Part shown: positions 1 through 64,000 of the stretch, in pieces
Layout of the letters: each line of letters opens with the position of its first letter
Numbering within the stretch: position 1 is the stretch's first letter
Source: Okeania sp. SIO2G5
Lineage (GTDB): Bacteria; Cyanobacteriota; Cyanobacteriia; Cyanobacteriales; Microcoleaceae
Reading direction: 5' to 3'
Assembly (NCBI RefSeq): GCF_010672305.1
Contig: NZ_JAAHGX010000014.1
Span: 26,698 to 90,697, forward strand
DNA length: 64,000 nt
Translations under genes and position numbers: made by a program
Notes under the pieces: generated by a model
What the model saw: the letters and a program-made list of their open reading frames with translations, nothing else
Databases searched by the model: none
What the model was told of the DNA's origin: nothing

Positions 1-500
1 CTTTTCTGTAATGTGAATCGGCAAACGAATTGTACGACCTTTTTCTGCTATGGCCCTAGTTATGGCCTGGCGAATCCACCAATAAGCATAAGTGGAAAAT
101 CTATAACCCTTGGTAGGGTCAAATTTTTCTACCCCTCTCTGCATACCGATAGTGCCTTCCTGTATTAAGTCAAGCAAATCTACATTTCGTTTGATATACT
201 TTTTAGCAACAGATACTACCAATCGTAGATTGGCCTCGACCATTTTTCGTTTTGCTCTTTCACCTTCGCGAATAATTCGTTGCAATTCATAAGTCGATAA
301 TCTTGTTGCCTCAGCCCATTCTGCTATTGTCGGTTTGCGGCCTAAACTTTCGGTGAGGGTCTTATTTACTTCATGCAAAGCTGTGAAGCGTTGTACTTGT
401 TTTCCATAAAGAATTTCTTCTTCATGGGTTAATAGGGGGACACGGCCAATTTCTCTGAGGTAAGTGCGTACAGAATCGGTGTCTGAGGTTTTTGTCTTCA
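1..500 (-). CDS. RNA polymerase sigma-70 family factor (group-2-like); N-terminal about 166 aa in window, C-terminus runs off the window start
   Basis: Minus-strand frame from ATG (complement of 498-500) translates [34 protein letters not shown]...[41 protein letters not shown]...RTIRLPIH. These are the canonical sigma-70 regions 1.2, 2.1-2.4 and 3.0. Confidence 0.8.
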
Positions 501-1183
501 TAACTCTTCTCCCGCTAGATATCTCTACTGATAGGGTTTTGAGCGCCCTGTTTTGAGTTAGCAAGAAAAGCGGGCGGGTATTGCGCTTTCCTTGGATTTT
601 TTTTAAGAAGTTTGTTCTATGGCCATTTGATATAATTAATTTGGCCTACAGAAATTCTAAATTATAAATTTGATATTTCTGAGATTTTAGATCTGGTCAA
701 AAAACCAAATTATCTTTTATCTTTTGAATCTATTTGTAAGAATTTGTGGACAATAAAAGAAGTTTTACTATTTTTTGAGAATTTAGATTAGATTTTGACT
801 AAGATTCAAGTGCTTTAGTACAGAATCCAGATTGGATTGGCCTAAAGTACAGCTTTTTCGTTTCTTATCTATTCAGATAATTATGATGGCCTTTACACTA
901 CTCAATACTATGTTAAGAATGTTAACATTTATTACGTCTTATGGCTATACCTATAAGGATGATTTTTCAGATGAATGAGTTTAATTACCTAAATTAGTTA
1001 AATTATCTATAAGAGGGTACTCATAAATTCTTAAAAAAATTGCATCCTGCACAACAAAATCACAAAAATTTTGCAAAAATACTTAAACAAGGTCAAAAAA
1101 AGAGTATATGAAGTATATTTACTTGACTTTTGACTTTCAATTTTAAACTTTTGACTATCTTGAGTATGTCTTTAATTCTGTTT

Positions 1184-1211
1184 GCATAACATTTCGCAGC
1201 GAAATGTTTGC
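1184..1211. promoter_or_regulatory. Near-perfect 13-bp inverted repeat (GCATAACATTTCGC-A-GCGAAATGTTTGC) about 55 bp upstream of the Anbu-like ORF; candidate operator or hairpin
   Basis: Palindrome read directly from the sequence. No known binding motif recognised. Confidence 0.25.
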
Positions 1212-1265
1212 TCAGAATTACTTACTCGTTTTTGGCTTCCGCGAAGCGGTTGAGTTACTTAATAT

Positions 1266-1989
1266 ATGACTTATTGCCTTGGTATTATTACTGAATCTGG
1301 TATTGTAATGGCCTCTGACTCTCGTACTAATGCGGGAGTAGACTATATTTCCACTTACCTGAAGCTATTTGATTTTTCTCTGACTGGAGAGCGGGTTATC
1401 CTCATCAGCACTTCTGGAAATTTGTCAATTACTCAAGGAGTAATCACTGAACTAAAAAAAAGACTTCAAGATTTCTGAGGATACTAATCTTCATACTATT
1501 CCTACCCTTTACGAAATTGCTCGCTATATTGGGAGTAAAATTCGACAGATTCAAGAAAAAGACCGCTCTTGGCTACAAAAGGATCGAATTGACACTGGAT
1601 GCAGTATATTACTAGGGGGTCAAATTAAAGGACAAGATCCTGAATTATTTTTGATTTATTCTCAAGGGAATTGTATTTCTGCTACAAAAGAAACACCTTT
1701 TCTACAAATAGGTGAGACTAAGTATGGCAAACCAATTTTAGACCGTGCTTTAAGTTTTTATACTTTTTTAGAAGCTGCTGCTAAATGTGCTTTAGTTTCT
1801 CTAGATTCTACAATGAAATCTAATCTTTCTGTGGGACCTCCGATTAATTTGGTGATGTATGAAAAGGATAGTTTTCAAATTCGGCATCGCCTGCAAATGC
1901 GTCTGGGCGATCCTTATTTAGCTAAAGTGCGAAAGTTATGGGAGGAGTTTATCAAACAAGTTCTTGATGAAATGCCAGATTTAAACTGA
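1266..1989 (+). pseudogene. Anbu/HslV-like proteasome-type Ntn-hydrolase, interrupted by a +1/-1 frameshift at an A8 homopolymer (1453-1460)
   Basis: ORF 1266-1478 begins MTYCLGIITESGIVMASDSRTNAGVDYIST, which has the Thr-2 N-terminal nucleophile signature of Anbu/beta-subunit-like proteins. The frame is open from 1444 in the +1 frame through 1989 (…TIPTLYEIARYIG…). The two frames overlap only across the A8 run. Combined length is about 241 aa, typical for Anbu. Confidence 0.55.
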
Positions 1990-2039
1990 TTACATGATTC
2001 TCAAGAATCTCAGGAAGATATTTTGATTGATTGAACAAC

Positions 2040-2130
2040 ACAAGAGAGTGGAGGAGTGGGGGAGTGGGGGCGAACGGCCGTTTGCCCGTAGGAGTACAGG
2101 AGTCAGGGAGTGGGGGAGTGGGGGAGAAAT
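2040..2130. repeat. Short dispersed repeat cluster: GGGGAGT heptamer repeats flanking the imperfect palindrome GGGCGAACGGCCGTTTGCCC
   Basis: Direct reading. Related GTAGGGGCGAATGGCC(A)TTCGCCCCTAC palindromes also occur at about 5415-5445, 16258-16310 and 49442-49468. The six-frame ORF 2027-2248 is an artefact of this repeat. Confidence 0.6.
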
Positions 2131-4019: not shown

Positions 4020-4538
4020 AGTTCAATTTTGAGTATGTAGAGATTTTTTTCCTTGATAGTGACTTTCAAATGTTGAGCGATCGAGATAAAATACACCAAG
4101 AAAATACTTGGCTGTTTTTACAAGTTAGGTTGAATTATTGAAGCTATAACTTACTTATTTATTCATACCAAATTTAACGCTATAATTTGGTAAAATTGTT
4201 TTTGGTTCTGAATTAATCAGTAATTCCAATTAAGAATTTCGGTAGCTCCTAAACTGAAGTTTCTATAAGAAAAAATCTCAATTTGTAGTTCCGCTAACTG
4301 CACCCAATTAAAGTAAGACCGGGTTGAGCGGAACTATGAGTTTGGTGATAATTAGTAAAAATTAATCACGCGCTAATCACGAAACTAATGCTCCAACAGC
4401 AACTGGTGGTGCTACTACTGCAACTATTGGAGCGATCGCTAATGCTTTACCAAGCTTACCTATTAGTAGACTAATAAGCTTAAAAATGTAGGTTGGGTTG
4501 AGCGGTAGCAAAACCCAACAAAAAGTTACTGGTTTTGA

Positions 4539-4856
4539 GTTTGTCTGAATCATGAGATTATTTTAGATATTCGCTATGCCACTACAAATAATTTCCTCAA
4601 CCAAAAATTATACCCTGTAGCAAAATGTGCTTGAAGAAAAGAAGTAGCAGAAAAATTATCACAAGTCCAGGCAGATTTAAAAATAATAGGATTAGGTTTA
4701 AAAGTTTATGATTGCTATCGACCTCTATCAGTGACAAAAAAGATGTGGGAAGTTTTGCCAGATTCTTGTTATTTTGCTAATCCTGAGAAAGGTTCTCGAC
4801 ATAATCGTGGTGCTGCAGTTGTCGTCTGCTTCTACTTGTTCCTCAATGATGCAAGT
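4539..4856 (+). pseudogene. VanX-like D-Ala-D-Ala dipeptidase (peptidase M15D) fragment lacking its N-terminus, with an in-frame TGA at 4632-4634 and a divergent C-terminus
   Basis: Translation reads ILDIRYATTNNFLNQKLYPVAKCA*RKEVAEKLSQVQADLKIIGLGLKVYDCYRPLSVTKKMWEVLPDSCYFANPEKGSRHNRGAAV, then diverges. No start codon is present. Confidence 0.5.
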
Positions 4857-4859
4857 TGA

Positions 4860-5079
4860 CCAGTTTCATAACGTGATGGCAGGTACGAGTATGGCAACGC
4901 CGTTTATTACTGGGTTGGTAGCGTTACTGTTGGAAAAGGAGCCGCAGTTAACCCCTGAAGAAATTAAGCAACGTTTGCATTCAAGTAGTTTTATTCCTGG
5001 AAAACCTGTTGGCAGTTTCGACCCAAAATGGGGTTTTGGTTTGATCGATGCTGAAAAATTATTGACGTTGGTGAATTAG
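4860..5079 (+). pseudogene. C-terminal fragment (about 70 aa) of an S8 subtilisin-like serine protease, juxtaposed to the VanX fragment
   Basis: …VMAGTSMATPFITGLVALLLEKEPQLTPEEIKQRL…GFGLIDAEKLL. GTSMATP is the catalytic-Ser motif of subtilases. The Asp and His catalytic regions are absent. Confidence 0.5.
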
Positions 5080-5990: not shown

Positions 5991-7091
5991 ATGCAAACAC
6001 TTGGCAATGAAGAAAGCAGCACCATGTCTACAACTAACGACAGTGGAGTTTTCTGGACACCTGTTTGGCGATCGCTAGGCTGGTATGTTGAGGCCACTGA
6101 AGAAGAAGGTGCAGCTTTATTAGGAGGTAATATCAGGTTCAAAGACCTCTCTGGGCAATTACTAGGTGCCCATGTAGCCCATGCTGGTTTAATCATGCTG
6201 TGGGCAGGTGCCATGACACTGTTTGAGCTATCTCAGTTTGACCCCAGCGTACCAATGTACGAGCAAAAACTAATATTACTACCTCATCTAGCAACATTAG
6301 GTATTGGTATCGAAGCAGGGGTACAAACAATCGACACCTATCCCTACTATGTCATCGGTATGCTGCATCTCATCAGTTCTGCTGTTTTGGGAGCAGGAGG
6401 TATCTACCATGCAGTTTTAGGGCCGAAACAGCTTGATGAGAAAGGTTTTGGCTACGACTGGGAAGATGGCAACAAGATGACTACTATTTTGGGTATTCAT
6501 CTAGTGCTGTTGGGGGTTGGAGCATCACTATTAGTCATTAAAGCAGTGATTTTAGGTGGTATTTACGACCCACTAATAGAACAAGTAAGGTTAATACAGC
6601 CTAATCTCGATCCCGTGAGAATTTTCGGTTATCTGTTTGGCTTTAGTCCTAATGGTTGGACAATTACTGGCATGGCTAGCGTAGATAATCTCGAAGATGT
6701 AATAGGCGGTCATGTTTGGGTCAGCCTACTCTGTATTGGAGGAGGTCTCTTTCACATTATTTCCAAACCTACAGGTTGGGCAAAAAAAATACTAATCTGG
6801 TCGGGAGAAGCTTACTTGTCCTACAGTTTAGGGGCACTTGCGATCGCAGGATTTAGCGTAGCTGTCTTTGTCTCCACTAACGAAATTGTTTATCCTAGCG
6901 TGTTTTACGGTCCTATTGGCAGCGACTCTGTGCGTTCTGCTCTTGCTAGCGTTCATGCTGGATTAGGTTTTTTAGCTTTGGTCGGACACTTATGGCACGC
7001 TTATCGAGCGCGAGCTGCTACTCGTAAAGTATTTTATGGAACCTTCTTTGACTTTATGGCTAAGAATGTCACACCTATTACACCTGCATGA
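5991..7091 (+). CDS. CP43'-family chlorophyll-binding protein (IsiA/Pcb-like), copy 1
   Basis: 366 aa. MQTLGN… start resembles Isi[47 protein letters not shown] is the psbC/isiA family signature. Six predicted TM helices. Confidence 0.9.
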
Positions 7092-7143
7092 ACATGAAGT
7101 CAAAATCTAAGTTCAATCACTAATAAGAAGGAGAACAACAGCA

Positions 7144-8175
7144 ATGACTGTAGTAACTGATGAGAATCTGCAAATCCCTTGGCGGGCAGGTAATGCTCGG
7201 CTTGTTGATCTATCCGGCAAGCTATTGGGCGCTCATGTAGCCCATGCCGGTCTAATTGTACTCTGGGCTGGAGCTATTACTTTGTTTGAAGTTGCCAACT
7301 TTGAACCCTCCCTACCGATGTACGAGCAGGGCTTAATTGTACTACCTAATCTAGCCCGCTTGGGAATTGGGGTTGGTGAAGGAGGTGCCGTTGTGGATAC
7401 TTACCCCTACTTCGTGATTGGGGCACTGCATTTGATTAGTTCAGCATTTTTGGGAGCAGGTGGAATGTTCCATGCTCTCAGAGGTCCTGCCAAGCTAGAG
7501 GGTACATTTTCCTTCTTTGGCTATAGCTGGGATAATCCAGGTAAAATGACAACTATCCTGGGTATACATCTAATGCTATTGGGAATCGGAGCCTTCTTAC
7601 TTGTGGCAAAGGCGATGGCATTTGGAGGATTATACGATCCAGTAGTTCAAAATGTAAGAGTCATATCAGATCCCACTCTAAATCCGATTACCATTTTCGG
7701 CTACTTATTTGGTACAGAAGGGAAATTCTGGCTTGCTGGTGTCAACTCTCTAGAGGATGTAGTAGGCGGTCATATATGGATTGGTGCTATCTGCATTTTG
7801 GGTGGTATCTGGCATATTCGCACCGTACCCTTTACCTGGGCTAAAGGCTTATTTGTCTGGTCTGGAGAAGCATATTTGTCTTACAGTATTGGCGCAGTTA
7901 GCTTAATGGCATTTATAGCAACATTGTTTGTGTCTGTTAACTCTCTAGTATTTCCCACAGAATTTTTCGGACCAACTTTGACTCTGGTGTTCGATCGCTT
8001 TCCTGTGTTTGTTAGCTCTGATGGGGCCTTGACTGCAAGAGTATGGTTAGCTAATGCCCACTTCTGGTTAGGATTTTTCTTCCTGCAAGGACATTTATTC
8101 CACGCCCTACGTGCAGCAGGCTATAGCTTCATCGAAGGCAGAGTAGTCACATTTACAAGAGGTCAAGTAAGCTAG
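7144..8175 (+). CDS. CP43'-family chlorophyll-binding protein (IsiA/Pcb-like), copy 2
   Basis: 343 aa, paralogous to the neighbouring genes ([28 protein letters not shown]…). AAGGAG Shine-Dalgarno 9 nt upstream of the start. Confidence 0.9.
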
Positions 8176-8177
8176 TT

Positions 8178-9743
8178 ATGACTGTCACTAAATCAAATCC
8201 ATTAAGGTTTTTAGGCTTTTCGACAGATGATAATATTGATGTTACGAACTATGTTGGAGATTCCCAAGAACCCTATTCCTGGTGGGCTGGTAATTTTCGC
8301 TTTGTTAACCTGTCTGGAAAGTTATTGGGAGCGCACATTGCTCATGCAGGGTTGATTGTACTCTGGGCTGGAGCAATGACTCTGTTTGAGCTATCACAAT
8401 TCGACCCTAGCCTTCCCATGTACGACCAAGGGCTGATTTTGCTGCCCCATTTGGCGACTCTGGGTATAGGGGTTGGAGCCAATGGTGAAATTATTGATAC
8501 TTATCCCTACTTGGCTATTGGTGTTGTCCATCTGGTTAGTTCAGCAATTCTAGGCGCTGGTGGGATTTACCATGCCGTGCTTGGACCTGACAAACTTGAT
8601 GAAAAAGGGTTTGGCTACAACTGGGAAGATGGCAAAAAAATGACTACTATCCTTGGTATTCATCTTCTGCTATTAGGGATGGGAGCATTTTTGCTAGTAG
8701 TCAAAGCTATGTATTTTGATGGTTTGTATGACCCGGCAGTAGCTGATGTGAGACTGATTACTCAACCTACTCTCAACCCACAGACTATCTTCGGTTACCT
8801 AGTAGGTATTACTCCTGACGGTTGGACTCTGAAGGGTATGGCTGCTGTCAACTCTCTAGAAGATGTGGTGGGCGGTCATATATGGATTGGTAGCATCTGT
8901 ATTCTAGGTGGTATCTGGCATATTACTACTGCTCCTACTAAATGGGCTAAGGGCTTATTTGTCTGGTCGGGAGAAGCATATCTTGCTTATAGTCAGGCAG
9001 CTCTGGCTTATATGGGCTTTTTCGCAGCCTACTTTGTCTGGGTGAATGATACAGTCTATCCTTCAGTATTTTATGGTCCTGTAGGTGTGACTAATGTTGA
9101 TGGTACAATCACTCCTCGTACCTGGCTGATGTTGTTCCAACTCATCTTTGCCTGTCTACTGTGGGCTGGCCACTTCTGGCATGGTCTCAGAGCTAGAGCG
9201 ATCGCTAGTGGATTTGTCTTCAGTAATCTGAAATTCAATCCTGGTGCCCTCTATGGAGACACTCAGTTTAATAACGAATCTCTAGTTACTGGTATTGTAC
9301 AGCCTTTCCAGAACAATCCTCAATTGGGTAATTTGGCAACCCCAATTAATTCCAGTCAGCTTACCATAACTTGGGTTAAGAACTTGCCAATTTACCGCAA
9401 TGGTTTATCTCCTATTGCACGGGGTCTAGAAATTGGCATGGCTCATGGCTACCTATTATTAGGGCCTTTTCTCAAGCTCGGACCATTGCGTAACACCGAC
9501 CAAGCTCTTCTGGCTGGAGGTGGTAGTGCATCTGGCTTAGTAGTGATTTTAAGTATCTGTCTGTTTGTTTATGGGGCGGTAGTGTTTCAAGGTTCTAGAG
9601 AACCAAGAGGCGTTTTACCGGAGAACCTACAAACTTATCAGGAATGGAGTTTGTTTACCTCTGGTTTTCTCATTGGAGGACTAGGCGGTGTAGTTTTTGC
9701 CTGCTTTATCCTTATAGAAATCGGGCGAGCGGGAATTTTGTAA
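8178..9743 (+). CDS. CP43'-family chlorophyll-binding protein fused to a C-terminal PsaL-like domain (Pcb-PsaL fusion type)
   Basis: 521 aa. The N-terminal 330 aa are Pcb/IsiA-like. The C-terminal about 170 aa (…[63 protein letters not shown]…) align to PsaL (…[29 protein letters not shown]…). The gene is translationally coupled to the previous gene (TAG..ATG, 2-bp gap). Confidence 0.85.
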
Positions 9744-9953: not shown

Positions 9954-10077
9954 CCTGCTCTATAAAACTGACACAAAGCGTCACATAACGTGACAAATTG
10001 ATGTTTACTTCCTGCTTCTTGTGAGGCCGTCGGCGGTTACTCATCCACAGGCATTGACGGTCAAGCCAACCGCATCT
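9954..10077 (+). repeat. Copy A of a roughly 120-bp dispersed element containing GTCACATAACGTGAC and a GC-rich stem region
   Basis: About 90 percent identical to 39223-39339 in the same orientation (CCTGCTCTATAAAACTG…GGCCGTCGGCGGTTACTCATCCACA…CCGCATCT). The ORFs 10021-10272 and 39124-39405 that overlap the copies are not conserved between them. Confidence 0.6.
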
Positions 10078-10665
10078 GTTGAGTCTATACCTACATTTAA
10101 GTCTTTGTCAATCAACATCAGAAAAAATCCTCAAACCCTGACTGCGCCCTTCCTAGTAGGGAGCGGGATTTCTTCTGAGGTCTATGTCTATATAGATAGA
10201 CTGCCAGAAATGTTTAAGTCGCGATTAGTGCAGAAGATACAAAGCGTCACCATCGTTACTACTTGCGTGTGAGAACTAGCGTATTATTTCGGTAAATTGC
10301 GCAAATTGTTAACTAAGTCGAAACTCTCCTGCTTCAGTTAACAGCTCAAATATGTTTTGACAACTCTATGACCTAGAAGTTGTTTGTAAATAATTATTTT
10401 GTAAATAATTATAAAGTTTTTTTACTCCTCACTAATTATAAATCTCCGATAATTAATCTCAAACCCTTGTACTACTTGGGCAAAAACTTCACTTCTGGAG
10501 ATGTATATTGAGTATTTCAGAGTACAAAGTTTGGAATAAATAACTAAATTAAAGGTGTTCCTTTACCTTACAAAAATTTACAAACAGTCTCTTTGGAATT
10601 TTTAGGTAATTCACTCTATGATATAGTCGAATCTTATAATTTTTAGTTTTTACAGGATTTTATCA

Positions 10666-13594: not shown

Positions 13595-13835
13595 ATTTAA
13601 CTCCTTTTTAACTCCTTAAAAAAATTAAATTTATTACTAATAAAATTCTCAAATATATACCACATAGGGATTTCTATTTCGACGCTTACGGAAATGGAGA
13701 GTATGATTACCAAACCCCTAGATAAAACTGTGTTTTAATTTTTATTCTGTTAAAATAGAAGTAATTATTCATTACTAATTGCTGATAGCTGACTGCTAAT
13801 AGCTGTTTGCGCAACATTCCGCAGGAAATGCTTAC

Positions 13836-14110
13836 CCATAATAAAATTCATCATCGGGCAAACTTCCAGCAAAAAGTTTAGGATTTTGCTCCAATAAACG
13901 AGAATACCAAAACTCTAAATCCTCTTTTGCATCCTTAGCACTGACCATTTCTAATGGCGTATATCCCAGAGATTTTTTAATAACAGGAGCTTTCAAACCT
14001 AGATATTTTGCTCCCAAAGCAGCAGCATCATCAGGATTTTTTTGAGACCAATTTACCGCTTCAACTAATCCATTTTGAACAGTCTGAATTATATCGGGAT
14101 ATTGATCGAT
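13836..14110 (-). pseudogene. C-terminal fragment (about 90 aa) of a NitT/TauT-family ABC substrate-binding protein
   Basis: …DQYPDIIQTVQNGLVEAVNWSQKNPDDAAALGAKYLGLKAPVIKKSLGYTPLEMVSAKDAKEDLEFWYSRLLEQNPKLFAG…. A stop codon lies immediately upstream in frame. The fragment overlaps the start of the opposite-strand chrA fragment. Confidence 0.5.
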
Positions 14111-14851
14111 TTTGTGATACCAGCATCAATCTTGGGATTAAATAACATAATTGTTATTCTTCTTGGGGGATTTTTGGGTATGTTTTGGCTTCATTTTTAT
14201 CGGGAATTTACCACTGAAACTCCGGCAAATAGACCTTCGGAAAATTCTAGAATTAGATTACCAAAAACACTGATAATCTTATTGATACTCCTGGGAGTAT
14301 TTTTATTAATTGATATCCTGACAACATCCGAGATTTCTCTATGGAAACTTAGTAGTTTTTGCCTCAAGGTAGGCAGTTTATTATATGGCAGTGGTTATGT
14401 ATTAATTGCCTTCCTACAAGATTTAGTAGATCAGTTTCATTGGTTAACTCAACAACAATTGTTGGATGCTATTGCTATCGGACAAATCACACCAGGACCT
14501 TTGATTTCTAGCGTCACTTTTATCGGTTATTTATTATTAGGATTACCAGGAGCAATAGTGGGGACAATTTCAATTTTATTACCTGCATTTTTGTTTAGTG
14601 CTGCACTCAATTCTTTGGTGCCACAAATGCGTAATTTTCGGTGGACTTGTGAATTACTTGATGCGATTAATGTTACTTCTATTGCTTTGATGGCATCTGC
14701 TTTTCTGACATTATCTAGATCGACACTTATTAATTGGCAAACTTTGTTGATTGCTCTATTTGCTTGTCTGATAAATTTTCGTTGGAAACTAAATATTATT
14801 TTGATGATTTTTTTAGGTGCTATTTCTGGTTGGATACTGTTCAGATTTTAA
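14075..14851 (+). CDS. ChrA-family (chromate transporter) protein, single half-domain; probably a truncated remnant of a two-domain ChrA
   Basis: 258 aa. …LKVGSLLYGSGYVLIAFLQDLVDQFHWLTQQQLLDAIAIGQITPGPLISSVTFIGYLLLGLPGAIVGTISILLPAFL matches the conserved ChrA repeat unit. Confidence 0.6.
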   Translation: MNSLNYIGILIDFVIPASILGLNNIIVILLGGFLGMFWLHFYREFTTETPANRPSENSRIRLPKTLIILLILLGVFLLIDILTTSEISLWKLSSFCLKVGSLLYGSGYVLIAFLQDLVDQFHWLTQQQLLDAIAIGQITPGPLISSVTFIGYLLLGLPGAIVGTISILLPAFLFSAALNSLVPQMRNFRWTCELLDAINVTSIALMASAFLTLSRSTLINWQTLLIALFACLINFRWKLNIILMIFLGAISGWILFRF

Positions 14852-15199
14852 TTGTTAAAAAGCGTTCAGCAATTCAGCAATCAGCGGTCAGCTTTGTCCT
14901 AAGGGGATTAAACCCAAGCTTTTCCGTTCAGGAATGCTCCGCAAACAGATACCATTATCTATGCACACATTTTTAGACTTATAGCTGATAGCTAATAGCT
15001 TATAGCTAGTTAACTTTAAATAGGTAGTACCGAAAATCTATGAAAATAAAGCAAGAATAATAAAGAAAACTCTAAATAAAATTGCCACAAAGAATTCTCT
15101 TTAGAAATACTGAAATTATCTTTACTTTTGTTTCTTCCTTCTTCCTTCTTCCTTCTTTCTTCCCTCCTGACTCCTGTCTCCTGTCTCCTGACTCCTTCT

Positions 15200-16000: not shown

Positions 16001-16084
16001 CTTGACTATGTTATTTTCAACTTGAATATAATCTTGACAGGATTTATCGCAGAAGGAAGAAGGAAGTCAGAGTAATATAATATC

Positions 16085-16235
16085 ATGTCCGCTGGTATCG
16101 TTTGTGTAAACCCAAGGGTGAATATTTACAGGAAATTTAGGTTTTTTCAAGCTTTTAAGCCTTCTTCCTTCTTCCCTCTTCCTTCTTCCTTACCTTCGCG
16201 TTTACAATACCGATGCTACCGGACATGATATAATT
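16085..16235. mobile_element. MITE-like element (about 150 bp) with roughly 32-bp terminal inverted repeats TATCATGTCCGGTAGCATCGGTATTGTAAAC and an internal GGAAGAA-type heptamer tract
   Basis: Left end AATATAATATCATGTCCGCTGGTATCGTTTGTGTAAAC is the reverse complement of right end GTTTACAATACCGATGCTACCGGACATGATATAAT. A second copy lies at 24135-24300. The end motif GGACATGATATAA also recurs at about 5497, 26041 and 37019. Confidence 0.5.
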
Positions 16236-21198: not shown

Positions 21199-22236
21199 GT
21201 GTTGGTAGTGCCTAATTTATCATTTGGCAAAATTGCAAAGTTTTCGGTTCCTATCAGAATAGGAATTTTTATTTTAACATTATTTCTGGGTTGGATACCA
21301 CTAGCAGCACCAATATATTTTTTTGGGCGAGATGCAAATTTAGCGAGTATATTGGCGATCGCTCTATTATATATAGAGTTTATTATTTTAGTCCAGTTTT
21401 GGGGAAAGAAAGTTTATCAACAACCACACCTACTACGTCACTACGGTTTAGAAATAAGTAGGGTCAACTTTCAGAATTTTTTTCAAGGTTTAGGAATAGG
21501 TTTAGTTAGTCTGTTTGGTTTTTTTATTTTAGAAGCGCTTCTGGGATGGGTAATATGGCAGTCACCTTCAGCAAAGTTACCTCAATTTATTCTGGAAGGT
21601 TTATTGGTATCTGTGGGTATTGGTTTTGCTGAGGAGTTACTATTTCGAGGGTGGTTATTGGATGAGTTGGAGCGAGACTACAAACCAAAAGTAGCTTTGT
21701 GGGTAAGTAGTATTGTGTATGCCTTACTACACTTTATTAAACCAGTTGAGGAAATTTTGCGGATTTGGTTTCAGTTTCCTGGTTTGGTGTTGTTAGGTTT
21801 AATCTTTGTTTGGGCAAAACGTGGATCAGTTGAAGAAGGAAGAAGGAAGAAGGAAGAAGGAAGAAGGCATCCCCCCTTGCCCCCCTTTGAAAGGAAGAAG
21901 GAAGAAGGCATCCCCCCTTGCCCCCCTTTGAAAGGAAGAAGGAAGAAGTGGATGGTGACTCAAAACCCAACTAATTATCAACACCGTGTAGATAGCGGGG
22001 TATTAAACCCAAAAGAAAAAGATAAATTGACTTATTATCAACAACAATTATTGGGTTTGCCTATTGGTATTCATGCTGGTTTTGTTTGGGGTTATTACAT
22101 TATTAATGTGGGTGGTTTAGTTAAGTATTCTAGTGTAGTTGGAGAGTGGATAGTTGGGATAAATGGTAATCCTTTAGCAGGTGTAATGGGGTGGTTTTTT
22201 TTAGGAGCGATCGCTTTGTTTATTCAGCGAAAGTGA
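21199..22236 (+). CDS. CPBP-family (CAAX/Abi-type) intramembrane metalloprotease carrying an in-frame heptamer-repeat insertion
   Basis: 345 aa with multiple TM helices and the motifs EELLFRG and …YALLHF…. A 118-bp repeat block (21832-21949) is translated in frame as …EEGRRKKEEGRRHPPLPPFERKKEEGIPPCPPLKGRRKKW…. Confidence 0.75.
   Translation: MLVVPNLSFGKIAKFSVPIRIGIFILTLFLGWIPLAAPIYFFGRDANLASILAIALLYIEFIILVQFWGKKVYQQPHLLRHYGLEISRVNFQNFFQGLGIGLVSLFGFFILEALLGWVIWQSPSAKLPQFILEGLLVSVGIGFAEELLFRGWLLDELERDYKPKVALWVSSIVYALLHFIKPVEEILRIWFQFPGLVLLGLIFVWAKRGSVEEGRRKKEEGRRHPPLPPFERKKEEGIPPCPPLKGRRKKWMVTQNPTNYQHRVDSGVLNPKEKDKLTYYQQQLLGLPIGIHAGFVWGYYIINVGGLVKYSSVVGEWIVGINGNPLAGVMGWFFLGAIALFIQRK
21832..21949. 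repeat. (GGAAGAA)n heptamer tract plus a tandemly duplicated 41-bp unit (GGAAGAAGGAAGAAGGCATCCCCCCTTGCCCCCCTTTGAAA, x2) inserted inside the CPBP protease ORF without breaking the frame
   Basis: Direct reading. The same heptamer family occurs at about 11886-11915, 15135-15165, 16040-16065, 16155-16195, 27020-27045, 41735-41780, 53735-53770, 59735-59765 and 63240-63290. Confidence 0.7.
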
Positions 22237-25751: not shown

Positions 25752-27067
25752 TTTATTGTTCTTAAATTAGACTCTGTTTCTATTTTATTGAATCAGGTAG
25801 AATAAAGCTGTTTAAATCAATTTTTAACTGGTAAAAATATTGTGTTATTATCAAGTCGATGAAAGTCTCCTTCAATATTATGGATAATACTTTTCAAGCT
25901 CTAGAATGCGATACTGATATTTTGATAAAACGATGGAGGAGTCAGGAGTCAACCCACCCCTCGCCCCTCCCCCTCCCAGGAGGGGAAGTCAGGAGTTAGG
26001 AGGAAAAAAGAAGGAAGTTTTTTATCAGTAATTAAGCGGACATGATATAAGTCAATTGCCTCTTGGTTTTTTCAAGAAAAGCTAGAAATTATTGAAAATG
26101 AAGTAAGAATTATCTTCGGAGATATAAAGTTAATTTTCCCAATAGAAGGTATTGAGTGTAAGATATTAAAACTTGGCTCTAAAACTTGGAAACCTGGTAA
26201 GCTGAGAATTCAAGTAATACTCAAAAATGCTAGTATTCAAACTATGGAATTTTAATTTTGTTATGACGAACCACCACAACAAGAATCACCATTAGACGAT
26301 ATTCGACAAAGAGAAGATTATCAACAACTTTTAAATAATCAATAAACTTATTACTGGCAAACTGGAAAACTAAAAAAATGAAAACTAAAAAAATATTCAG
26401 TGTGACACTACTAATTATACTGTAAGTATTATTTTGAGACTATAAGTATTATTTTAAATTTATTTATACAGCAGATTTCACCTAAGTTAAGTACACCAGT
26501 AGCGGAAAAAATACCCGCACCACAAAAGTTTTATTTAAACTCTATTATTAAGGGCGAAGTCTTAATTTTTTTTACTTCATATACTTGCATTTTGCTGTAT
26601 TAAACTCAACTCTATCATTATTTTATCTGTTCAAATTTTTCAACTTTAATTTTGCTACATGAATAGTCTTTCCATTATCCAGTTTAAAATTTTTCCTAAA
26701 GCAAATCCTCCTGCCAATGCTAAGAAAATATAATACAGTAGATTCCACTTTAATCAGATACACCCGTCGCTGGCAAGATGCCCGCACTAGAAACATTTAA
26801 TTGTTAATCTCTGTACTTCTTATGGGAGGAATCTGCTGTAATTTATATTTATAACTCCAGCTTAAGTTTCTAGAATGTTCTAAATAAAGAAAGATAGAAA
26901 AAAATAGCAGGCAAAAACAGTACTAAAACTAAAGTTATAGTGTTTATAAAAGTTATAGCAGTCGAAGGAAAGGTTAGGAGAAATAAAAAACTTAAAACTC
27001 AGACAAAGGAATATTTTTCCTTCTTCCCTCTTCCTTCTGCTATATACCAATTCCTAAAAATAATGCT

Positions 27068-27717: not shown

Positions 27718-28200
27718 TCATATTTTCTACACTTATAACCTGACACCTACCAGGAAGGGTAGGGAGGATAAATCATATATTTAGGAATTAGGCATTTTTG
27801 AGTTCTAAACACTACATATCTGTAACGTTATAGTTTTTCTCGTTATATATAGTCTGTTTACCTAAATTCGGAACTATAACGTTATAGTTTTTCTCGTTAT
27901 ATATAGTTTGTTTACCTAAATTCCGAGTCGCCTACCACCTAGAACTAAAGTCCCGGTAGACAGGATAAATCATATATTTAGGAATTAGGCATTTTTGAGT
28001 TCTAGAGACGACATATCTGTAACGTTATAGTTTTTGCTCACTATATATAGTCTGTTTACCTAAATACCGATCGCCTGACACCTACCACTCAAGGAAGGGT
28101 AGGGAAAATAAATCATATATTTAAGAATTAGGGATTTTTGAGTTCTAAACACTACATATTTGTAACGTTATAGTTTTTGCTCACTATATATAGTAGTCGA
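27718..28200 (+). repeat. Complex nested tandem-repeat locus (about 190-bp macro-units x3, each containing one or two about 50-bp subunits …CTGTAACGTTATAGTTTTT(C/G)…TATATATAG…)
   Basis: Direct reading. The core GGCATTTTTGAGTTCTAAACACTACATATCTGTAACGTTATAGTTTTT is shared with the 76-bp array at 56483-56925. Confidence 0.6.
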
Positions 28201-31350: not shown

Positions 31351-31622
31351 GAATTTGGTATTACAAAGAAACAAAGAATATGGAAGAGATAAAAAAGTAG
31401 AAACTTGCTCAATAGACATATAGATATCTCCAGAAAAGAGATAACAGGTAACAGGAAGAAATAATAGAAATCATCAATTATTTCTCCCTACTCCCCTACT
31501 CCCCTACTCCCTGCTCCCTACTCCCTACTCCCTAAATTGGGATTAATCAACCCATTAGCCGTACCAAAAATATTAATTGGACTCTTACCATCAGTAATTA
31601 AAACACTCTGAAGACCAAGCCC

Positions 31623-33179
31623 CTACAACAACCTCGCCTGCATTTCTGGGCCATCTTGAGCGATCGCCCGAATTGTCTCAGCCCCCAAAGCCTCCACTTT
31701 TTGCTGAAACTCAGTAGCAGTAATTTCAGCCATTTGCCTTGCCTTCTCAATCTCTAAATTATTCAGTGTCTGCTGATGGGCTAACTCAGTCTCCTGACGC
31801 GCCCTCAACTGAGCCATCTCAGCCTCATGGCGAATCCGTGCTGCTTCTACTTCCTGCTGCGCCAAATTCACCGCCAACTGGCCTTGAAAAGGAGATAACA
31901 TATAAGCTTGAGGTCCATTGACTAATTTTAGTTCCCCACTTTGAACATCCCGTACATATATACCTTCATTTTTGTCTAGGGGAATAGCCTGAAGTTTTTC
32001 TAATACTTCTAATTCCACTGGGGGAATATAATCTCTTGGCCCAGTAATCATCCATAAATCTCCTGGTTGCCGAGTAATAACGTTTGCTCCTGTTCCCTCG
32101 GTGAAAGTTTCCTCAACTCTGATTAGGAGTGCTTCTTGTTCACCAAGAATATAGACCTTTTTAATTCCTGTTTCTAAATCTTCTCCTGGGTGCAAAAAGA
32201 AAGATGTTCTGCCCTGACGCACTTCTTTCATACCCCACTGCGGTTTACCATCTGCATCTATGGGATTAGTTACTATGCACCATTCGCGATCGCTTAAAGT
32301 AGTGATTTTGACTTCTCCCACTACTTCTTCATAAACGTCGGGAATATGAATTTCAGCATCTGCAAAAGTAACTAACTATTCATCTCCCGCTTTGCGTTGC
32401 TGACCAAAAATATCAGTAAAAGTCCGTTTTGCTTTTAGATGTAGTGCTTGACGTTCGGTTAATACATAGGCATCAATAGTATCGACAATTTCTTCATCTA
32501 CTCCAGGCAAATAAGCACCTTCTTCCCTGACCAACCATTATTCCCCAGTTCTACGTCTGTTACCTTGACGATCTATACAATTTTGTCGTGCCAGCAGTCG
32601 TAAGGCTTGGTTAGGTTTAATTATTTTAGCTATAACTGTGACTACCACTTCAACTTCTACCCTGGGAGTGTAAGTTCCTGGCCCCTCAAATAACCATTCA
32701 TCCCCTGTCGTACGAGTGACAGTTTGAGACTCTCCTGCAACGGTGACTGTATCAGTAAAATCTCGTATTGCTTTGAGACGTAGAGTTTGGTTTGTGTCAA
32801 TTACTTGTAGTTGAGTTACATCTTCTTCGAGTATTTCTCCTGGATATAGTGGGAAAGTGTCTTGAGCAAAGCGAATTTCCAGATCGCCATATTTGAGTCT
32901 AATTTAACCATACTCATCGGCCACAAGTTGATCTGAACTATTTCTTAGTACAGGGTTAGTTACTACACAATAATGGCGAGGTGGAACTACAATTGTCAGT
33001 TGTGGTTGTAAGACTAACCTTTCTGCATCTCCAAGGGTAATGGTTTGAGGGCCTATTTCTAGTCTGGTGACACCAGTGTTATTGTCAAGAACATGAATAT
33101 ACTGTTGTGGCTTCAGGAGAATTATACCATTGTTCTCTATTGTAATTGGATATTCTGTGGTACTTTTTATTTTACTCAT
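31623..33179 (-). pseudogene. Major vault protein (MVP) homolog with vault repeat domains and C-terminal coiled coil, interrupted by three in-frame nonsense codons (TAA 32904-32906, TAA 32538-32540, TAG 32377-32379) and no frameshifts
   Basis: One continuous minus-strand frame of 519 codons. N-terminus YIHVLDNNTGVTRLEIGPQT…VVPPRHYCVVTNPV matches the eukaryotic MVP N-terminus ([20 protein letters not shown]…VPPRHYCTVANPV). Repeat motifs [30 protein letters not shown] and GDE*LVTFADAEIHIPDVYEE are present. The middle region matches …GPDGKNQLG…SFFLQPGEQLEQGIQDVYVL…AIPLDENEGIYV…. C-terminal TIRAIAQDGPEMQARLL matches MVP STIRDLAVAGPEMQVKLL. Segments 2 and 3 lack any Met. Confidence 0.75.
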
Positions 33180-52064: not shown

Positions 52065-52094
52065 CTCACAAATAAAAAGGATTGAAAGAAAAAC

Positions 52095-55300: not shown

Positions 55301-55596
55301 ATTTATGATCTATATTTTTATTTTTAATCCCACATTCCGCACTTCAATTTGTAACATGAAAGTTAGTATAAAATCCGTAGCTTGCTTAGGTATTTATACT
55401 ATATAAATTATCTTCATTTACCTTAATCGGAAGTCAAATTCTCAGTTAAATATTAAGCGCATAAATACTTACTGAATCCTTAACTCCTATTGACCACTAT
55501 AATTTTCTTCTTACTTGTTATTTCTGACTTTTGACTTTTTACTTTTGAATTTTGGCTTTTGACTTGTTATAATAATTTATAATCAAATTCAGTAGT

Positions 55597-56482: not shown

Positions 56483-56925
56483 TCAGTTTTGGGTCTTAAA
56501 CACTATGTATCTATAACGTTATAGTTTTTCAACGCTATATATTATATTCAGGAGTTTGGCATTTTTGGGTCTTAAACACTATGTATCTATAACGTTATAG
56601 TTTTTCAACGCTATATATTATATTCAGGAGTTTGGCATTTTTGGGTCTTAAACACTATGTATCTATAACGTTATAGTTTTTCAACGCTATATATTATATT
56701 CAGGAGTTTGGCATTTTTGAGTCTCAAACACTATGTATCTATAACGTTATAGTTTTTCAACGCTATATATTATATTCAGGAGTTTGGCATTTTTGAGTCT
56801 CAAACACGATTTATCTATAACGTTATAGTTTTTCAACGCTATATATTATATTCAGGAGTTTGGCATTTTTGAGTCTCAAACACTATGTATCTATAACGTT
56901 ATAGTTTTTCAACGCTATATATAGT
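56483..56925 (+). repeat. Tandem array of about 5.8 copies of a 76-bp unit (…CAGGAGTTTGGCATTTTTGGGTCTTAAACACTATGTATCTATAACGTTATAGTTTTTCAACGCTATATATTATATT…)
   Basis: Period of 76 measured from recurring GGGT at 56491, 56567 and 56643. Copies differ by a few SNPs (GGGTCTT vs GAGTCTC). Each unit contains the perfect 14-nt palindrome CTATAACGTTATAG followed by T5, and an AT-rich TATATT box. Confidence 0.8.
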
Positions 56926-57012: not shown

Positions 57013-57378
57013 CTACTCCGCATTATTCCAGCCATCAATCGAAGCCATTAAAATATTAACTGCTGGATGGTCAATCAACTCCTTAAAAGCTTCCTTTCCT
57101 CCCTGTTTTAAAGCTTCAATTATTCGAGATTTCAGAGAGGGATTTTTCTCAATTTCTTGCATTACTTCACCTACAATTATTGCATTTTCCGTAGGAGTTG
57201 CAGAATAGTCCGGTTTAGACAATTGTTGTAATAATTGTTGAATTTCTTTTGCTGCCTCTGCTAAATTTTGCTTTTGCTCTGGGGAATAATTATATTGAAT
57301 TACTTTATCTATCTTTGGTTTACCCGCAGCAATAATAGAACGATCACCCTTAATATCATATTTATTTTCCTCAGTCAT
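57013..57378 (-). CDS. hypothetical protein (121 aa), downstream part of the split gene; has its own AAGGAG Shine-Dalgarno and ATG
   Basis: MTEENKYDIKGDRSIIAAGKPKIDKVIQYNY… The same frame is open for 246 nt upstream (…KLIIPVKEASTKYFRKVFSTLEGIVNQAKEQNKYEAIKAKFKFDDIIQYLENNSEKVVQQTTTEYKINGTNIFVNSEIRRLK) back to the TAA of the preceding ORF. Confidence 0.5.
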   Translation of the reverse strand: MTEENKYDIKGDRSIIAAGKPKIDKVIQYNYSPEQKQNLAEAAKEIQQLLQQLSKPDYSATPTENAIIVGEVMQEIEKNPSLKSRIIEALKQGGKEAFKELIDHPAVNILMASIDGWNNAE

Positions 57379-57624
57379 TTTTAATCTCCTTATTTCACTA
57401 TTTACAAAAATATTAGTACCATTAATTTTATACTCAGTAGTTGTCTGTTGAACAACCTTTTCTGAATTGTTCTCCAGATATTGGATAATATCGTCAAACT
57501 TAAACTTAGCTTTTATTGCTTCATATTTATTCTGCTCCTTAGCTTGATTAACTATACCTTCCAGAGTTGAAAAGACTTTCCTAAAATATTTTGTAGACGC
57601 TTCTTTAACGGGAATAATAAGCTT

Positions 57625-58731
57625 TTATTGACCGGATATTTCTGTTAAAGGCGGCAAGAACACTAAGCAAGGCAGTTGTGCAATAGGAACGCCTAAGTCT
57701 CGTGCTATTTTGTAAGATTCATTTCGATTAAATGGCTTTTTAGTAAACAGTCTAATTGGTTTAAATATTTCATGCAGCTCTGATAAAAGTAGATACTTCC
57801 AATACTTGATGAAAAGCTTCCAGTTAATTCCTTTTTTTTCTAAGACATATATATAGCACCACTTACCAGTTAGCTCGTCAAAGTCTTCAAAGTTATTCAT
57901 CATATAGTCTACTATTTCCGCATCTCCATCTGTACACAGGAAAATTCCTTTGACTAAACTATGTGAGTATTTCTTGATATTTTTGTCAGTGATTATAGTG
58001 TCTTCATATAGAGTTTTGCTTGCAGGGATAAAAGGGACAAAACCAAAAATCTCTTTGTATAAAGCTTCGATTGTAGGGACAGGAGGCACAGAACTTTGAA
58101 AATAGGGACGATAGTCCTCTAAAAACTTGTAATACTTTTCCTCAATTACAGGGGCAAAAACTTTACTAATTACAGGGACAAAAACTTTACTGTTCTTTTC
58201 AATTAAATTTACCTCCATTAGGTCAATTAATCTTTGATATTTAGCCTTGATTGCAGAAGCAAAATTAGGATTATGATTACCTCGTAGAGGGTAGTAAATA
58301 TCTTCAATTATTGTTCCATACATTACCTTGATTGCAAAGATAACATTTGTCCTATTACTCTCAGCTAAATTTGATTTTGCCAACTCCACTAATTCTAGGT
58401 ACTGTTTCTCAATTCTCAGGACAATACTTACCTCGTTATGTGCATCTATACCTCGCTCAATTAACAATTCAGCTAATTCAATTAACTTTTTATGTACTAG
58501 CTCAATTCTAAATAAAATAGATGTATTATCTTCAGTTGAACTTAACTCAATTAACCCAATTACTTGTTGATTGACTTCCTCAAGGACAGAAACAATGTTA
58601 GTTGTTTTATTATTAATTGAATTTAACTCTATATTTGATGCACTTAATGTTCTGAGCTTTCTTATAACAAACTTTCCCAATTGCTCTAATAGTTCGTCCC
58701 GACTCTTATTACCCATAATAATCTCCCCCAA
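57625..58731 (-). CDS. hypothetical protein (368 aa), upstream part of a gene split by a single in-frame TAA
   Basis: Open frame with an internal 16-codon duplication (KVFVPVISKVFAPVIEEKYY). Its TAA at 57625-57627 is in frame with 82 further stop-free codons leading into ORF 57013-57378. Confidence 0.5.
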   Translation of the reverse strand: MGEIIMGNKSRDELLEQLGKFVIRKLRTLSASNIELNSINNKTTNIVSVLEEVNQQVIGLIELSSTEDNTSILFRIELVHKKLIELAELLIERGIDAHNEVSIVLRIEKQYLELVELAKSNLAESNRTNVIFAIKVMYGTIIEDIYYPLRGNHNPNFASAIKAKYQRLIDLMEVNLIEKNSKVFVPVISKVFAPVIEEKYYKFLEDYRPYFQSSVPPVPTIEALYKEIFGFVPFIPASKTLYEDTIITDKNIKKYSHSLVKGIFLCTDGDAEIVDYMMNNFEDFDELTGKWCYIYVLEKKGINWKLFIKYWKYLLLSELHEIFKPIRLFTKKPFNRNESYKIARDLGVPIAQLPCLVFLPPLTEISGQ

Positions 58732-62058: not shown

Positions 62059-62179
62059 AGAAAATTCAGTATTTCAAGCCCCCTAATGAAGTAGGAGGTA
62101 CTGTTAAATGTTAACGGCTAACTGATAACTGAATTGACTTGTATTTCCCAATTAACTTTGATATTTATGTGAGAAAATT

Positions 62180-62611
62180 ATGAGTAAGAAGAATAAAATA
62201 AGGGTCTTAGCTTTGGGTTTAATTAGAGATGACGATCACTTGTTTATTTCTCAAGGTTATGACTCTATAAAACAGGAAAGTTTCTATCGAGTTATGGGTG
62301 GGGGCGTTGATTTTGGAGAGTATAGTCGTGATGCTTTACAGAGAGAGTTTCAAGAGGAGATTGAAGCTGAGTTGACTAATATTAAATATTTGGGATGTAT
62401 GGAAAATATTTTTATGTTTAATGGAGAGGAAAGACATGAGTTAATTCAATTATATAAATGTGATTTTGCTGACCCAAAGTTTTATCAAATAGAGGAGTTA
62501 ACTTTTTGGGAGAAGGAACGAAAAAAAACGGCACTTTGGGTTTCGATAGATAGATTTAAGTCTGGAGAATTGAAAATAGTTCCAGAAAATTTTTTAGAAT
62601 ACTGTGATTAG
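62180..62611 (+). CDS. NUDIX hydrolase
   Basis: 143 aa. Canonical Nudix box GGGVDFGEYSRDALQREFQEEIEAEL. Confidence 0.8.
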   Translation: MSKKNKIRVLALGLIRDDDHLFISQGYDSIKQESFYRVMGGGVDFGEYSRDALQREFQEEIEAELTNIKYLGCMENIFMFNGEERHELIQLYKCDFADPKFYQIEELTFWEKERKKTALWVSIDRFKSGELKIVPENFLEYCD

Positions 62612-62624
62612 GAGAATAATTAAA

Positions 62625-63242
62625 ATGGAGATTAATATTCCAGATGTCGTGGCAGAGGTAACAGGAGGATTTGAGCAATATGAAGTTGCTTTGATTAGTA
62701 ATAATGTGAATGTTTTAGCCCACATTCCGTACTTCAATATGTAGTATAAAAATCAGGAAGACCGAGTCAGGAAGACCGAGTCAGGAGAAAAAAATAGTGG
62801 TTAATAGGAGTAAATAATTAAGTATTTATACTTAATATTTTCCTGAGAATTTGACTTTGAGAAAGGTCAATGAATAGGATCTATATAGTATAAATACTGA
62901 TCGATCCTCCGATTTTTATACTACTTTTAATGTTACAATTTGACGTGCGGAATGCGAGTTTTAGATGAATTATTTTGGCATATTCCCCAGACTATCCGTT
63001 ATGCAGTAAATGAAAATCTCTATGGATATGAGGCAATATCAGCTTTTAGAAAAGCGCGTGGAAAAGTTAATTTAGAGCGAGTATTAATGAATACTGTTAT
63101 TACAACTTATGGTCAAGATTTTGCCACAGCAAATACTGAATTTCAGCGTCAAAAAACTGGAAAAATGGGTAGGCAAAGTCAAACTTGGATGTGTACTTCT
63201 GTTGGTTGGCGAGTTGTGAGTGCTCATGTTTCTTTCTTATAA
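62625..63242 (+). pseudogene. SnoaL/NTF2-like (DUF4440-type) protein gene disrupted by a 240-bp MITE insertion
   Basis: N-terminal part MEINIPDVVAEVTGGFEQYEVALISNNVNVL (62625-62717). C-terminal part [92 protein letters not shown] (62964-63242). The two parts share a frame and are separated by the insertion; the N-terminal frame stops at TAG inside the insert. Confidence 0.6.
62718..62957. mobile_element. MITE (240 bp) with imperfect roughly 30-bp terminal inverted repeats (GCCCACATTCCGTACTTCAATATGTAGTATAAAA / reverse complement CTCGCATTCCGCACGTCAAATTGTAACATTAAAAGTAGTAT) and a 6-bp target-site duplication GTTTTA (62712-62717 and 62958-62963)
   Basis: Direct reading. Related TIR fragments at 55322-55370 and about 48293-48318. 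Contains an internal (AGGAAGACCGAGTC)x2 direct repeat. Confidence 0.6.
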
Positions 63243-63322
63243 GGAAGGGAGAAGGAAGAAGGAAGGAGGAAGGAGGAAGAAATAAAGGGAAAAAATTAGT
63301 TGAGATCAGTAGCTTTTAGAAG

Positions 63323-63916
63323 ATGAATCAAAATTTACAAGATAAAAAAACTTTTCAACAAAATAATAAATCTCAAAATTATACTGAATTAAGTCAAGTA
63401 AAAAATGATTATTCAGAGTTATGGAAATATGAACAAGATGATGTTGATACTATTAATAAGTTAGCTGAGATTTATTATAATCAGGGAAATTTTACTGAAG
63501 CGATCGCTGTTTGTCAGAAAGTATTAAAAGAACAAGCAAATTTTGCTCCAGTCTACAAAACTTTGGGAAACATCCTACAAGCACAAAATAAAATAGATGC
63601 TGCTATTCGTGCTTATTCATTGGCAATAAAAATCAATCCAAATTTTATTGAAGCTATTGTCAATTTGGCGAGTATGTTTTATAAAAAAGGGCAAATTGAT
63701 GCAGCAATGATTAATTATAGAAAAGCAATTAAAATGAAACCCGATCTAGCAGAAGCTTATTGGAATTTAGGCAAAGTTTTAGAACAAGAGGGCAGATTTT
63801 ACGAAGCATTTTTTTTTCAAGAAAAAGCTTTAGAGCTTCAGCCTAGTTTAGTTGATAATACTGAAAATAATCATCAATATAGTCATTTTCAAAAGTGGAA
63901 TAATATAGAGAGTTAA
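63323..63916 (+). CDS. tetratricopeptide-repeat protein
   Basis: 197 aa. At least four TPR units (…AEIYYNQGNFTEAIAVCQKVLK…YKTLGNILQAQNKIDAAIRAYSLAIKINPNF…NLASMFYKKGQIDAAMINYRKAIKMKPDLAEAYWNLGKVL…). Confidence 0.7.
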   Translation: MNQNLQDKKTFQQNNKSQNYTELSQVKNDYSELWKYEQDDVDTINKLAEIYYNQGNFTEAIAVCQKVLKEQANFAPVYKTLGNILQAQNKIDAAIRAYSLAIKINPNFIEAIVNLASMFYKKGQIDAAMINYRKAIKMKPDLAEAYWNLGKVLEQEGRFYEAFFFQEKALELQPSLVDNTENNHQYSHFQKWNNIES

Positions 63917-64000
63917 ATCAGTTATCAGTTATCAGCAATTAATAATTAAAAATTACTGCTACGGTTAATATAGGGTAAGTAATTTTTTATCTATAGCAAT

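Follow-up and report, generated by a model that had tools for sequence, protein, structure and literature searches.

Probable piecemeal loss of dispensable genes in a repeat-rich chromosomal stretch of the Okeania hirsuta group

We analysed a 64-kb stretch of DNA from Okeania sp. SIO2G5 (contig NZ_JAAHGX010000014.1, positions 26,698 to 90,697; hereafter the window), in which broken protein genes and short repeats lie among intact housekeeping genes. The window had a GC content of 35% with no ambiguous bases, and profile searches (Pfam and NCBIfam) returned an ordinary chromosomal gene set: housekeeping genes (a sigma-70 factor, adenylosuccinate lyase PurB, TldD, ClpS, PanE, a thioesterase, DeaD, RimO, CbiC, tRNA-Tyr and tRNA-Thr), photosynthesis genes (three IsiA-like genes in tandem, of which the third is a fusion with PsaL, and a CpcL-like linker), and genes for an OprB porin, a CPBP protease, a P450, a DUF815 protein, a Ser/Thr kinase with WD40 repeats, OmpA, a dynamin-like GTPase and ABC transporters. 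It was picked for looking unusual, and all results below concern these 64 kb of assembled sequence only. A first-pass annotation of the letters alone had seen many small gene-disrupting lesions here, set them beside the repeat-rich genomes of the Nostocales and the pseudogenes of symbiotic lineages, and inferred relaxed selection. A placement in the Nostocales did not survive comparison of PurB, which shared 100% amino acid identity with that of Okeania hirsuta PAB10Feb10-1 (order Oscillatoriales, family Microcoleaceae), 97-99% with other Okeania, 91-94% with Trichodesmium and Dapis (93-94% for Dapis) and at most 86% with all other cyanobacteria, identities that place the window within the Trichodesmium/Okeania/Dapis clade. 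Nucleotide identity to about 15 Okeania assemblies was mosaic, from 90 to 100%. Three assemblies were near-identical to the window (L001, 99.9%; L091, 100%; L094, 99.8-100%), and since their contigs are small or joined differently we treat them as independent assemblies of the window's lineage. Exact-protein matches for CbiC and DUF3531 came from near-identical assemblies only, P0123 had no match on record, and an outgroup for 57-64 kb was obtained via protein P0121.

About 10 of the 47 protein loci (21%) were broken. The first is a pseudogene of the proteasome-like protein Anbu (1263..1989, + strand), with a +1 frameshift at a run of eight A (A8, 1453-1460). The A8 run occurred in the window and in contig L001, against seven A (A7) with otherwise near-identical flanks in four other Okeania loci (L002, L003, L005, L006); the open reading frame (ORF) of orthologues with A7 is intact, at 256 aa, and with one A removed the window sequence gave a continuous match to the Pfam Proteasome profile (positions 7-179 of 189). 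Anbu of PAB10 has A7, yet residue 14 is changed to a nonsense codon of its own and 1 bp is inserted near residue 216; in all, Anbu has been inactivated in two lineages through three separate mutations. Three remnants follow one another further downstream. A small Ala/Gly/Thr-rich membrane protein is reduced to a C-terminal remnant (4297..4389, - strand) with a stop in place of W, a 25-residue tail whose upstream part is replaced by a repeat element; the protein is intact, at 94-96 aa, in L004, L005 and L007. The tail lies just upstream of a fragment of a VanX-type D-Ala-D-Ala dipeptidase (4539..4829, + strand), which has an in-frame TGA at 4632-4634 and matches Peptidase_M15 at positions 13-97 of 199 only. 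Fused downstream of it is the C-terminal tail of a subtilase of family S8 (4840..5079, + strand), comprising the last ~80 residues and matching the Peptidase_S8 profile at positions 231-273 of 288 only. The same VanX/S8 remnant was present in L001 and in O. hirsuta PAB10Feb10-1 (L002). At 14111 a C-terminal fragment of an SsuA-like substrate-binding protein (13835..14111, - strand; NCBIfam SsuA_fam positions 186-250 of 290) meets a 3' fragment of the chromate transporter gene chrA (14111..14851, + strand; TIGR00937 positions 140-368 of 368), which is without the first 139 profile positions, the first domain. This junction is that of a single 1,114-bp deletion relative to L082, which cost chrA its 5' part and further shortened an SsuA-like gene that had been truncated before. 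A KGK-domain gene remnant (25835..26345, + strand) is disrupted by an inserted repeat, by a frameshift and by a stop in frame; the ORF is intact, at 171 aa, in L087 and L090.

A further remnant is a pseudogene of the major vault protein (MVP; 31518..33179, - strand). It has four in-frame stops, all in one frame (TAA at 32904 and 32538, TAG at 32376 and 31623), and an in-frame deletion of about 315 aa, which relative to the 926-aa protein of Okeania sp. SIO3I5 removed residues 488-802 (shoulder and cap helix). MVP is intact and syntenic in SIO3I5, where the order is kinase-WD40, MVP, Tmemb_14 and DUF815, and the four stops also occurred in two O. hirsuta assemblies of another study (RCBY, which is PAB10Feb10-1, and RCBZ). 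Many filamentous cyanobacteria encode full-length MVP homologues (~870-930 aa) with the complete set of Vault repeat, shoulder and cap domains; these homologues carry the NCBI name 'colicin uptake protein', with 2,579 matches in the search. A gene of unknown function (57013..58731, - strand) is split by TAA at 57625-57627, where the orthologue has GAA for a conserved Glu; orthologues in three Okeania species are single proteins of 570-617 aa, and records from four contigs include the 363-aa N-terminal product left by the split. Product P0133 of Okeania sp. SIO2C9 stops exactly where the window gene has its stop codon. The C-terminal domain of this gene (~200 aa, window 57013-57624) matched P0147-P0155 and in other cyanobacteria is fused to pentapeptide-repeat, Roc/COR GTPase and HEAT/NACHT proteins.

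Finally, an AtzH-like/HpxZ gene (62625..63242, + strand) is interrupted by a miniature inverted-repeat transposable element (MITE) of 233 bp (62725-62957), with ends CCCACATTCCGTAC ... GTGCGGAATGCGA. Removing the element restored a protein that matches HpxZ over its full length (positions 1-122 of 122; 184 bits against a cut-off of 135), and the split gene was also present in L094 and L095. Copies of a 7-bp target duplication, GTTTTAG, lie at 62718-62724 and 62958-62964, and the inverted ends are imperfect, with an inverted-repeat core CATTCCG(Y)AC. A second copy of the family, at 77% identity, lies at 55333..55529, and further copies were found in L096 and L097, which makes this a short, non-coding, multicopy element with terminal inverted repeats and a target duplication, as MITEs are defined. 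The first-pass annotation had already recorded the Anbu frameshift, the VanX-subtilase fusion, the nonsense codon at 57-58 kb and the MITE, in what it called a SnoaL-like gene, and on all of these we agree; every feature on its list is present in the sequence, and for most of them an intact orthologue from another Okeania assembly served for comparison. It had counted three nonsense codons in MVP, one fewer than there are and without the deletion, and rightly saw SsuA-like and chrA fragments on opposite strands; their 50-bp "overlap" is an artefact of ORF calling, an ORF running over the deletion junction. All five nonsense codons with an intact orthologue were single-base G/C-to-A/T changes. 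A tblastn search with relatives' ORFs of at least 90-100 aa against the window's spacers recovered only the KGK and small membrane protein remnants, neither of which the first-pass annotation had recorded, and further, very decayed remnants may have escaped the count.

Close relatives carried different lesions in the same 64 kb. PAB10 has lost 246 bp, in frame, from its first isiA copy, RCBZ has a split P450 gene, chrA of L082 has a stop, the MVP pseudogene of RCBY and RCBZ has added a fifth stop and a 98-bp insertion, and HpxZ is deleted in SIO3B5. A 2.8-kb deletion common to five assemblies left OprB residues 248-557 and permease residues 1-115, whereas both genes are full length in the window. 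The lesions are recent and vary among strains, and since sister strains have their own different lesions in the same stretch, decay is ongoing. In the region 12853-16228, five assemblies (L083-L086 and L089) have a deletion in place of the segment that runs from the OprB N-terminus through SsuA and ChrA to the permease, and they carry a gene for a 436-aa EF-Tu-like GTPase that is absent from the window; L082, L087, L088 and L090 have response-regulator and histidine-kinase genes at that spot, which is a rearrangement hot spot.

Intact coding sequence made up 56% of the window, or 67% with remnants and tRNAs counted, and the median spacer was 424 bp. Within the 28 kb that are not intact coding, gene remnants (6.9 kb) and repeats (4.6 kb) accounted for about 40%. 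Repeats, comprising heptamer arrays and MITE-like elements, occurred in 27 of 40 spacers. They fall into at least eight families; besides the heptamers, the longer tandem arrays and the MITE there are at least five dispersed families with lengths of 55-150 nt. The first-pass annotation had put the number of families at five or more. Rfam searches of the window, at the gathering threshold and at an E-value of at most 0.1, returned only three copies of IsrR and the two tRNAs; the long spacers are thus not accounted for by any known RNA. About 27 period-7 arrays were found by self-comparison and Tandem Repeats Finder, with units GAAGAAG, CTCCCTA, CTGTTCC, AATTCTA, TAATTAT and others; one of them, seven copies of CTCCCTA, lies at 31484..31534. 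Counting exact arrays of at least three copies, there were 12 at period 7 against 0-2 at each other period from 5 to 11 and none in 50 shuffles. Longer tandem arrays occupy 56487..56922 (76-bp unit, 5.7 copies) and 27877..28194 (143-bp unit, 2.2 copies, strain-variable); the two are related and have a common core, TATAACGTTATAGTTTTT. Their copy number differed even among near-identical assemblies (about 3.7 more 76-bp units in L094; more 143-bp units in L088), which may be real variation or assembly collapse.

One repeat block lies within a gene. The CPBP/Rce1-like protease gene (21199-22236) contains the heptamer array (GAAGAAG)5 and a 41-bp tandem repeat (21832..21948, + strand), which form an in-frame loop, about 54 residues larger than in homologues of other genera; the block is absent from homologues outside Okeania. 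The first-pass annotation was right that the block is there, but we rejected it as a lesion: its length varies among strains, yet it is in frame in 10 of 10, with the catalytic EExxxR, FxxxH and H motifs kept. Three unrelated predicted proteins (P0195, P0239 and P0248) matched the protease only at the repeat-encoded residues 212-283, indicating that the same repeat DNA is translated within other called ORFs in public data, where it is a source of spurious protein families.

To compare selection on broken and intact genes we used the ratio of nonsynonymous to synonymous substitution rates (dN/dS), a comparison that the first-pass annotation had proposed. Core genes were strongly constrained, with values of 0.04-0.07 for PurB, about 0.1 for TldD, about 0 for ClpS and DUF3172 and 0.02 for CbiC, a range of 0-0.11. 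MVP gave 0.15 against SIO3I5 and about 0.9 within the hirsuta group, and Anbu gave 0.08 against SIO1I7 and 0.71 against PAB10; these values point to recent inactivation after long constraint. We regard the window as probably a piece of O. hirsuta-group chromosome with the architecture of Trichodesmium and Dapis, in which dispensable genes are lost one by one, their remnants are cleared slowly and core genes stay intact. Low coding density, long spacers and numerous pseudogenes, as in a Trichodesmium-type genome, were all present.

Several observations weigh against this reading. Other intact non-core genes had dN/dS of 0.2-0.5 at low dS (0.05-0.3); this may reflect short divergence, where such values are common, and some general weakening of selection is conceivable. 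The density of broken loci exceeded a 5% background in a binomial test (P = 9e-5), but this figure is post hoc for a window picked as unusual, and the 21% may overstate the genome-wide figure. Several of the assemblies compared are metagenome bins. Some "broken" genes may retain partial function: stand-alone proteins of 360-400 aa exist that are similar to the N-terminal part (368 aa) of the split 57-58 kb gene, and polymerase slippage might in principle rescue the A8 run in Anbu to some extent. Unlike Trichodesmium genomes, the window held no transposases, group II introns, retroelements or insertion sequence (IS) elements by Pfam and Rfam, in a sample too small to decide the matter genome-wide; one IS605-type gene was called in the related locus L088.

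The first of the competing explanations, that of the first-pass annotation, is genome-wide relaxed selection with reductive erosion of the symbiont type, as in 'Nostoc azollae'. In its favour, broken genes and repeats are densely packed, and the dN/dS values of many non-core genes lean the same way. Against it, the organism, a marine cyanobacterium, is of the O. hirsuta group, known from free-living benthic mats, and not of the Nostocales. Every core gene in the window was intact (purB, tldD, clpS, panE, deaD, rimO, cbiC and the tRNAs), with dN/dS of at most 0.11; inactivation of core genes, as expected of symbiont-type reduction, was not seen in the window, and broken genes were accessory only. 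Related genomes, moreover, are large and expanded rather than shrinking, at 10.45 Mb in Dapis (PMC13643306) and with a genome described as expanding in T. erythraeum (Larsson et al. 2011, PMC3141437). With core genes constrained and only dispensable ones broken, the evidence favours a gene-specific loss of constraint over a symbiont-like global erosion, which we consider improbable; relaxed selection is thus supported for dispensable genes, whose decay is ongoing, and not for the genome as a whole.

About equally improbable is that the window is an atypical, junk-rich variable island and the rest of the genome ordinary, the pattern being a local coincidence. Its mosaic identity to other strains, with many insertion and deletion differences, would fit such an island, as would the content next to purB, which varies among Okeania species. 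Against this, housekeeping genes (purB, tldD, clpS, panE, deaD, rimO, cbiC and two tRNAs) run throughout the window, split genes also occur in flanking loci of other Okeania, and the coding fraction and spacer length equal published genome-wide values for Dapis and Trichodesmium (PMC13643306, PMC3655545).

Still less credit is due to the idea that sequencing or assembly produced the lesions and that the organism itself has intact genes. Many purported bacterial pseudogenes are indeed assembly errors (PMC11017572), the homopolymer frameshift in Anbu is of the most error-prone type, as the first-pass annotation cautioned, and there are metagenome bins among the relatives; yet every lesion was seen again in one or more assemblies from other samples (L001, L002, L091-L095 and, for P0125, four contigs), whereas an assembly error should be lacking from independent assemblies of the lineage. 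Such recurrence means that they are not sequencing errors. The five clean single-base stops, the deletions of 0.3-1.1 kb and a MITE with its target-site duplication are likewise unlike errors, and dN/dS of the broken genes reaches ~1 within the hirsuta group. It is just as hard to credit that some lesions are switches or are bypassed, by phase variation (at A7/A8 or in heptamers), programmed frameshifting or read-through, for while A7/A8 is polymorphic among strains, heptamer copy number changes among them and the CPBP arrays are always in frame, the Anbu orthologues are in frame with A7 in a single frame with no conserved recoding site, PAB10 Anbu is broken by irreversible mutations instead, MVP has both TAA and TAG stops plus the 315-aa deletion, and the window encodes no suppressor tRNA. 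Recoding of the in-frame stops was rejected on the mixture of TAA, TAG and TGA, the sense codons in orthologues and the large MVP deletion.

Returning to one-by-one loss of dispensable genes on an expanded chromosome, we propose that it would proceed as follows, on an architecture of long spacers, numerous short repeats and many dead genes. Single genes would be struck by slippage in a homopolymer (A7 to A8), by G/C-to-A/T substitutions making stop codons, by deletions of 0.3-1.1 kb, or by insertion of MITE and heptamer-type repeats, and those hit here are Anbu, the VanX-type dipeptidase, the subtilase, SsuA, ChrA, the KGK protein, MVP, HpxZ and two genes of unknown function. Dead copies would be cleared slowly and persist as recognisable remnants, enlarging the non-coding fraction, with core genes kept intact under strong purifying selection. 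We infer that the cause is lost selection on individual genes and that AT-biased mutation supplied the nonsense changes; the remnants would persist because the bias towards deletion, or selection on genome size, is weak, and the window would be typical of the whole genome. A broader idea, possible but doubtful, is that the 40% non-coding DNA of the Trichodesmium/Okeania/Dapis clade, long without an explanation, consists mostly of accessory genes that have died, together with heptamer and MITE repeats, through fast inactivation and unusually slow deletion. Comparison among strains already catches genes as they are inactivated and deleted. If such a graveyard holds genome-wide, the origin of that non-coding DNA would be directly measurable by comparing Okeania strains. 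Close Okeania assemblies allow single inactivations to be dated and counted, as with the gene that was inactivated in three ways and the deletions that lie within older remnants, and such dating could help to explain the ~40% non-coding DNA in the clade. There is also a practical side: Okeania-type genomes are mined heavily for natural-product clusters, and their gene calls need pseudogene-aware annotation.

Other features of the window deserve a brief record. The IsiA/CP43'-like trio lies at 5991-9743 (and 10666-11379), and its third gene is an in-frame PsaL fusion of 521 aa; each of the three has a full-length Rfam match to the antisense RNA IsrR, and the CpcL-like linker, with a C-terminal membrane segment, comes after them. 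In O. hirsuta PAB10 (L002) an additional isiA copy is fused within a 941-aa ORF. The dynamin-like GTPase (871 aa, 44310-46925) has a TerB domain at its N-terminus, and a separate TerB-like protein of 148 aa is encoded at 28361-28807. Two GC-rich islands (51-60% GC) at 36780-36990 and 37100-37320 lie in the AT-rich spacer 3' of deaD; neither had an Rfam match. The first is bordered by CTCCCTA heptamers, and partial copies of the second turn up at unrelated positions of Okeania/Dapis/Trichodesmium-like loci (L005, L010, L012, L013 and L096). These islands may represent a dispersed element or a structured RNA that has yet to be described. An ORF of 93-116 aa at 39124-39405 (- strand), with no Pfam match and 95% conserved in two O. 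hirsuta assemblies, contains a 150-nt repeat also present at 9955-10104 (85% identity), making it a candidate gene or repeat element.

Parts of this picture resemble systems already described. Bacterial MITEs include the Nezha family of the Nostocales, and the window's element is like them in being small (233 bp) and non-coding, with imperfect terminal inverted repeats, a 7-bp duplication, diverged copies and a precise interruption; it has no sequence relation to any named family. The heptamers are like the cyanobacterial STRR repeats, reportedly described by Mazel et al. 1990, in forming tandem heptanucleotide arrays concentrated in spacers; their units differ from the classical STRR1-3, and one array is part of a coding sequence, where it encodes a loop in frame. 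Long simple-sequence repeats were treated by Mrazek et al. 2007, as summarised in PMC4679880. The genome erosion of 'Nostoc azollae' 0708 (Ran et al. 2010, PMC2900214) likewise concerns a filamentous cyanobacterium with many pseudogenes and repeats, but that organism is an obligate, vertically inherited symbiont of the Nostocales that has also lost core functions.

Within the window's own clade, to our knowledge, no lesion-level, strain-differing decay has been reported for Okeania. Dapis, a different genus, is like the window in coding density (63.7%, against 83.7% in reference cyanobacteria) and GC content (~36%) and has large, dynamic genomes; the report covers coding density and IS content, not pseudogenisation gene by gene (PMC13643306). 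T. erythraeum is about 60% coding and ~40% non-coding, with numerous pseudogenes (PMC3141437, PMC3655545, PMC4143802), and has a median spacer of 459 bp in strain IMS101 against 14-231 bp in other cyanobacteria (PMC3655545). The window resembles this in its share of non-coding DNA (~40%), in a median spacer near 450 bp and in its many pseudogenes, and it comes from a member of the same clade. The pattern is thus real but not a new kind of thing, its gene-poor, pseudogene-rich style having already been published for Trichodesmium. Unlike in the Trichodesmium accounts, decay is resolved here lesion by lesion and differs among close strains, and the finding adds Okeania, a sister genus that is benthic, to the Trichodesmium style of "erosion inside an expanded genome".

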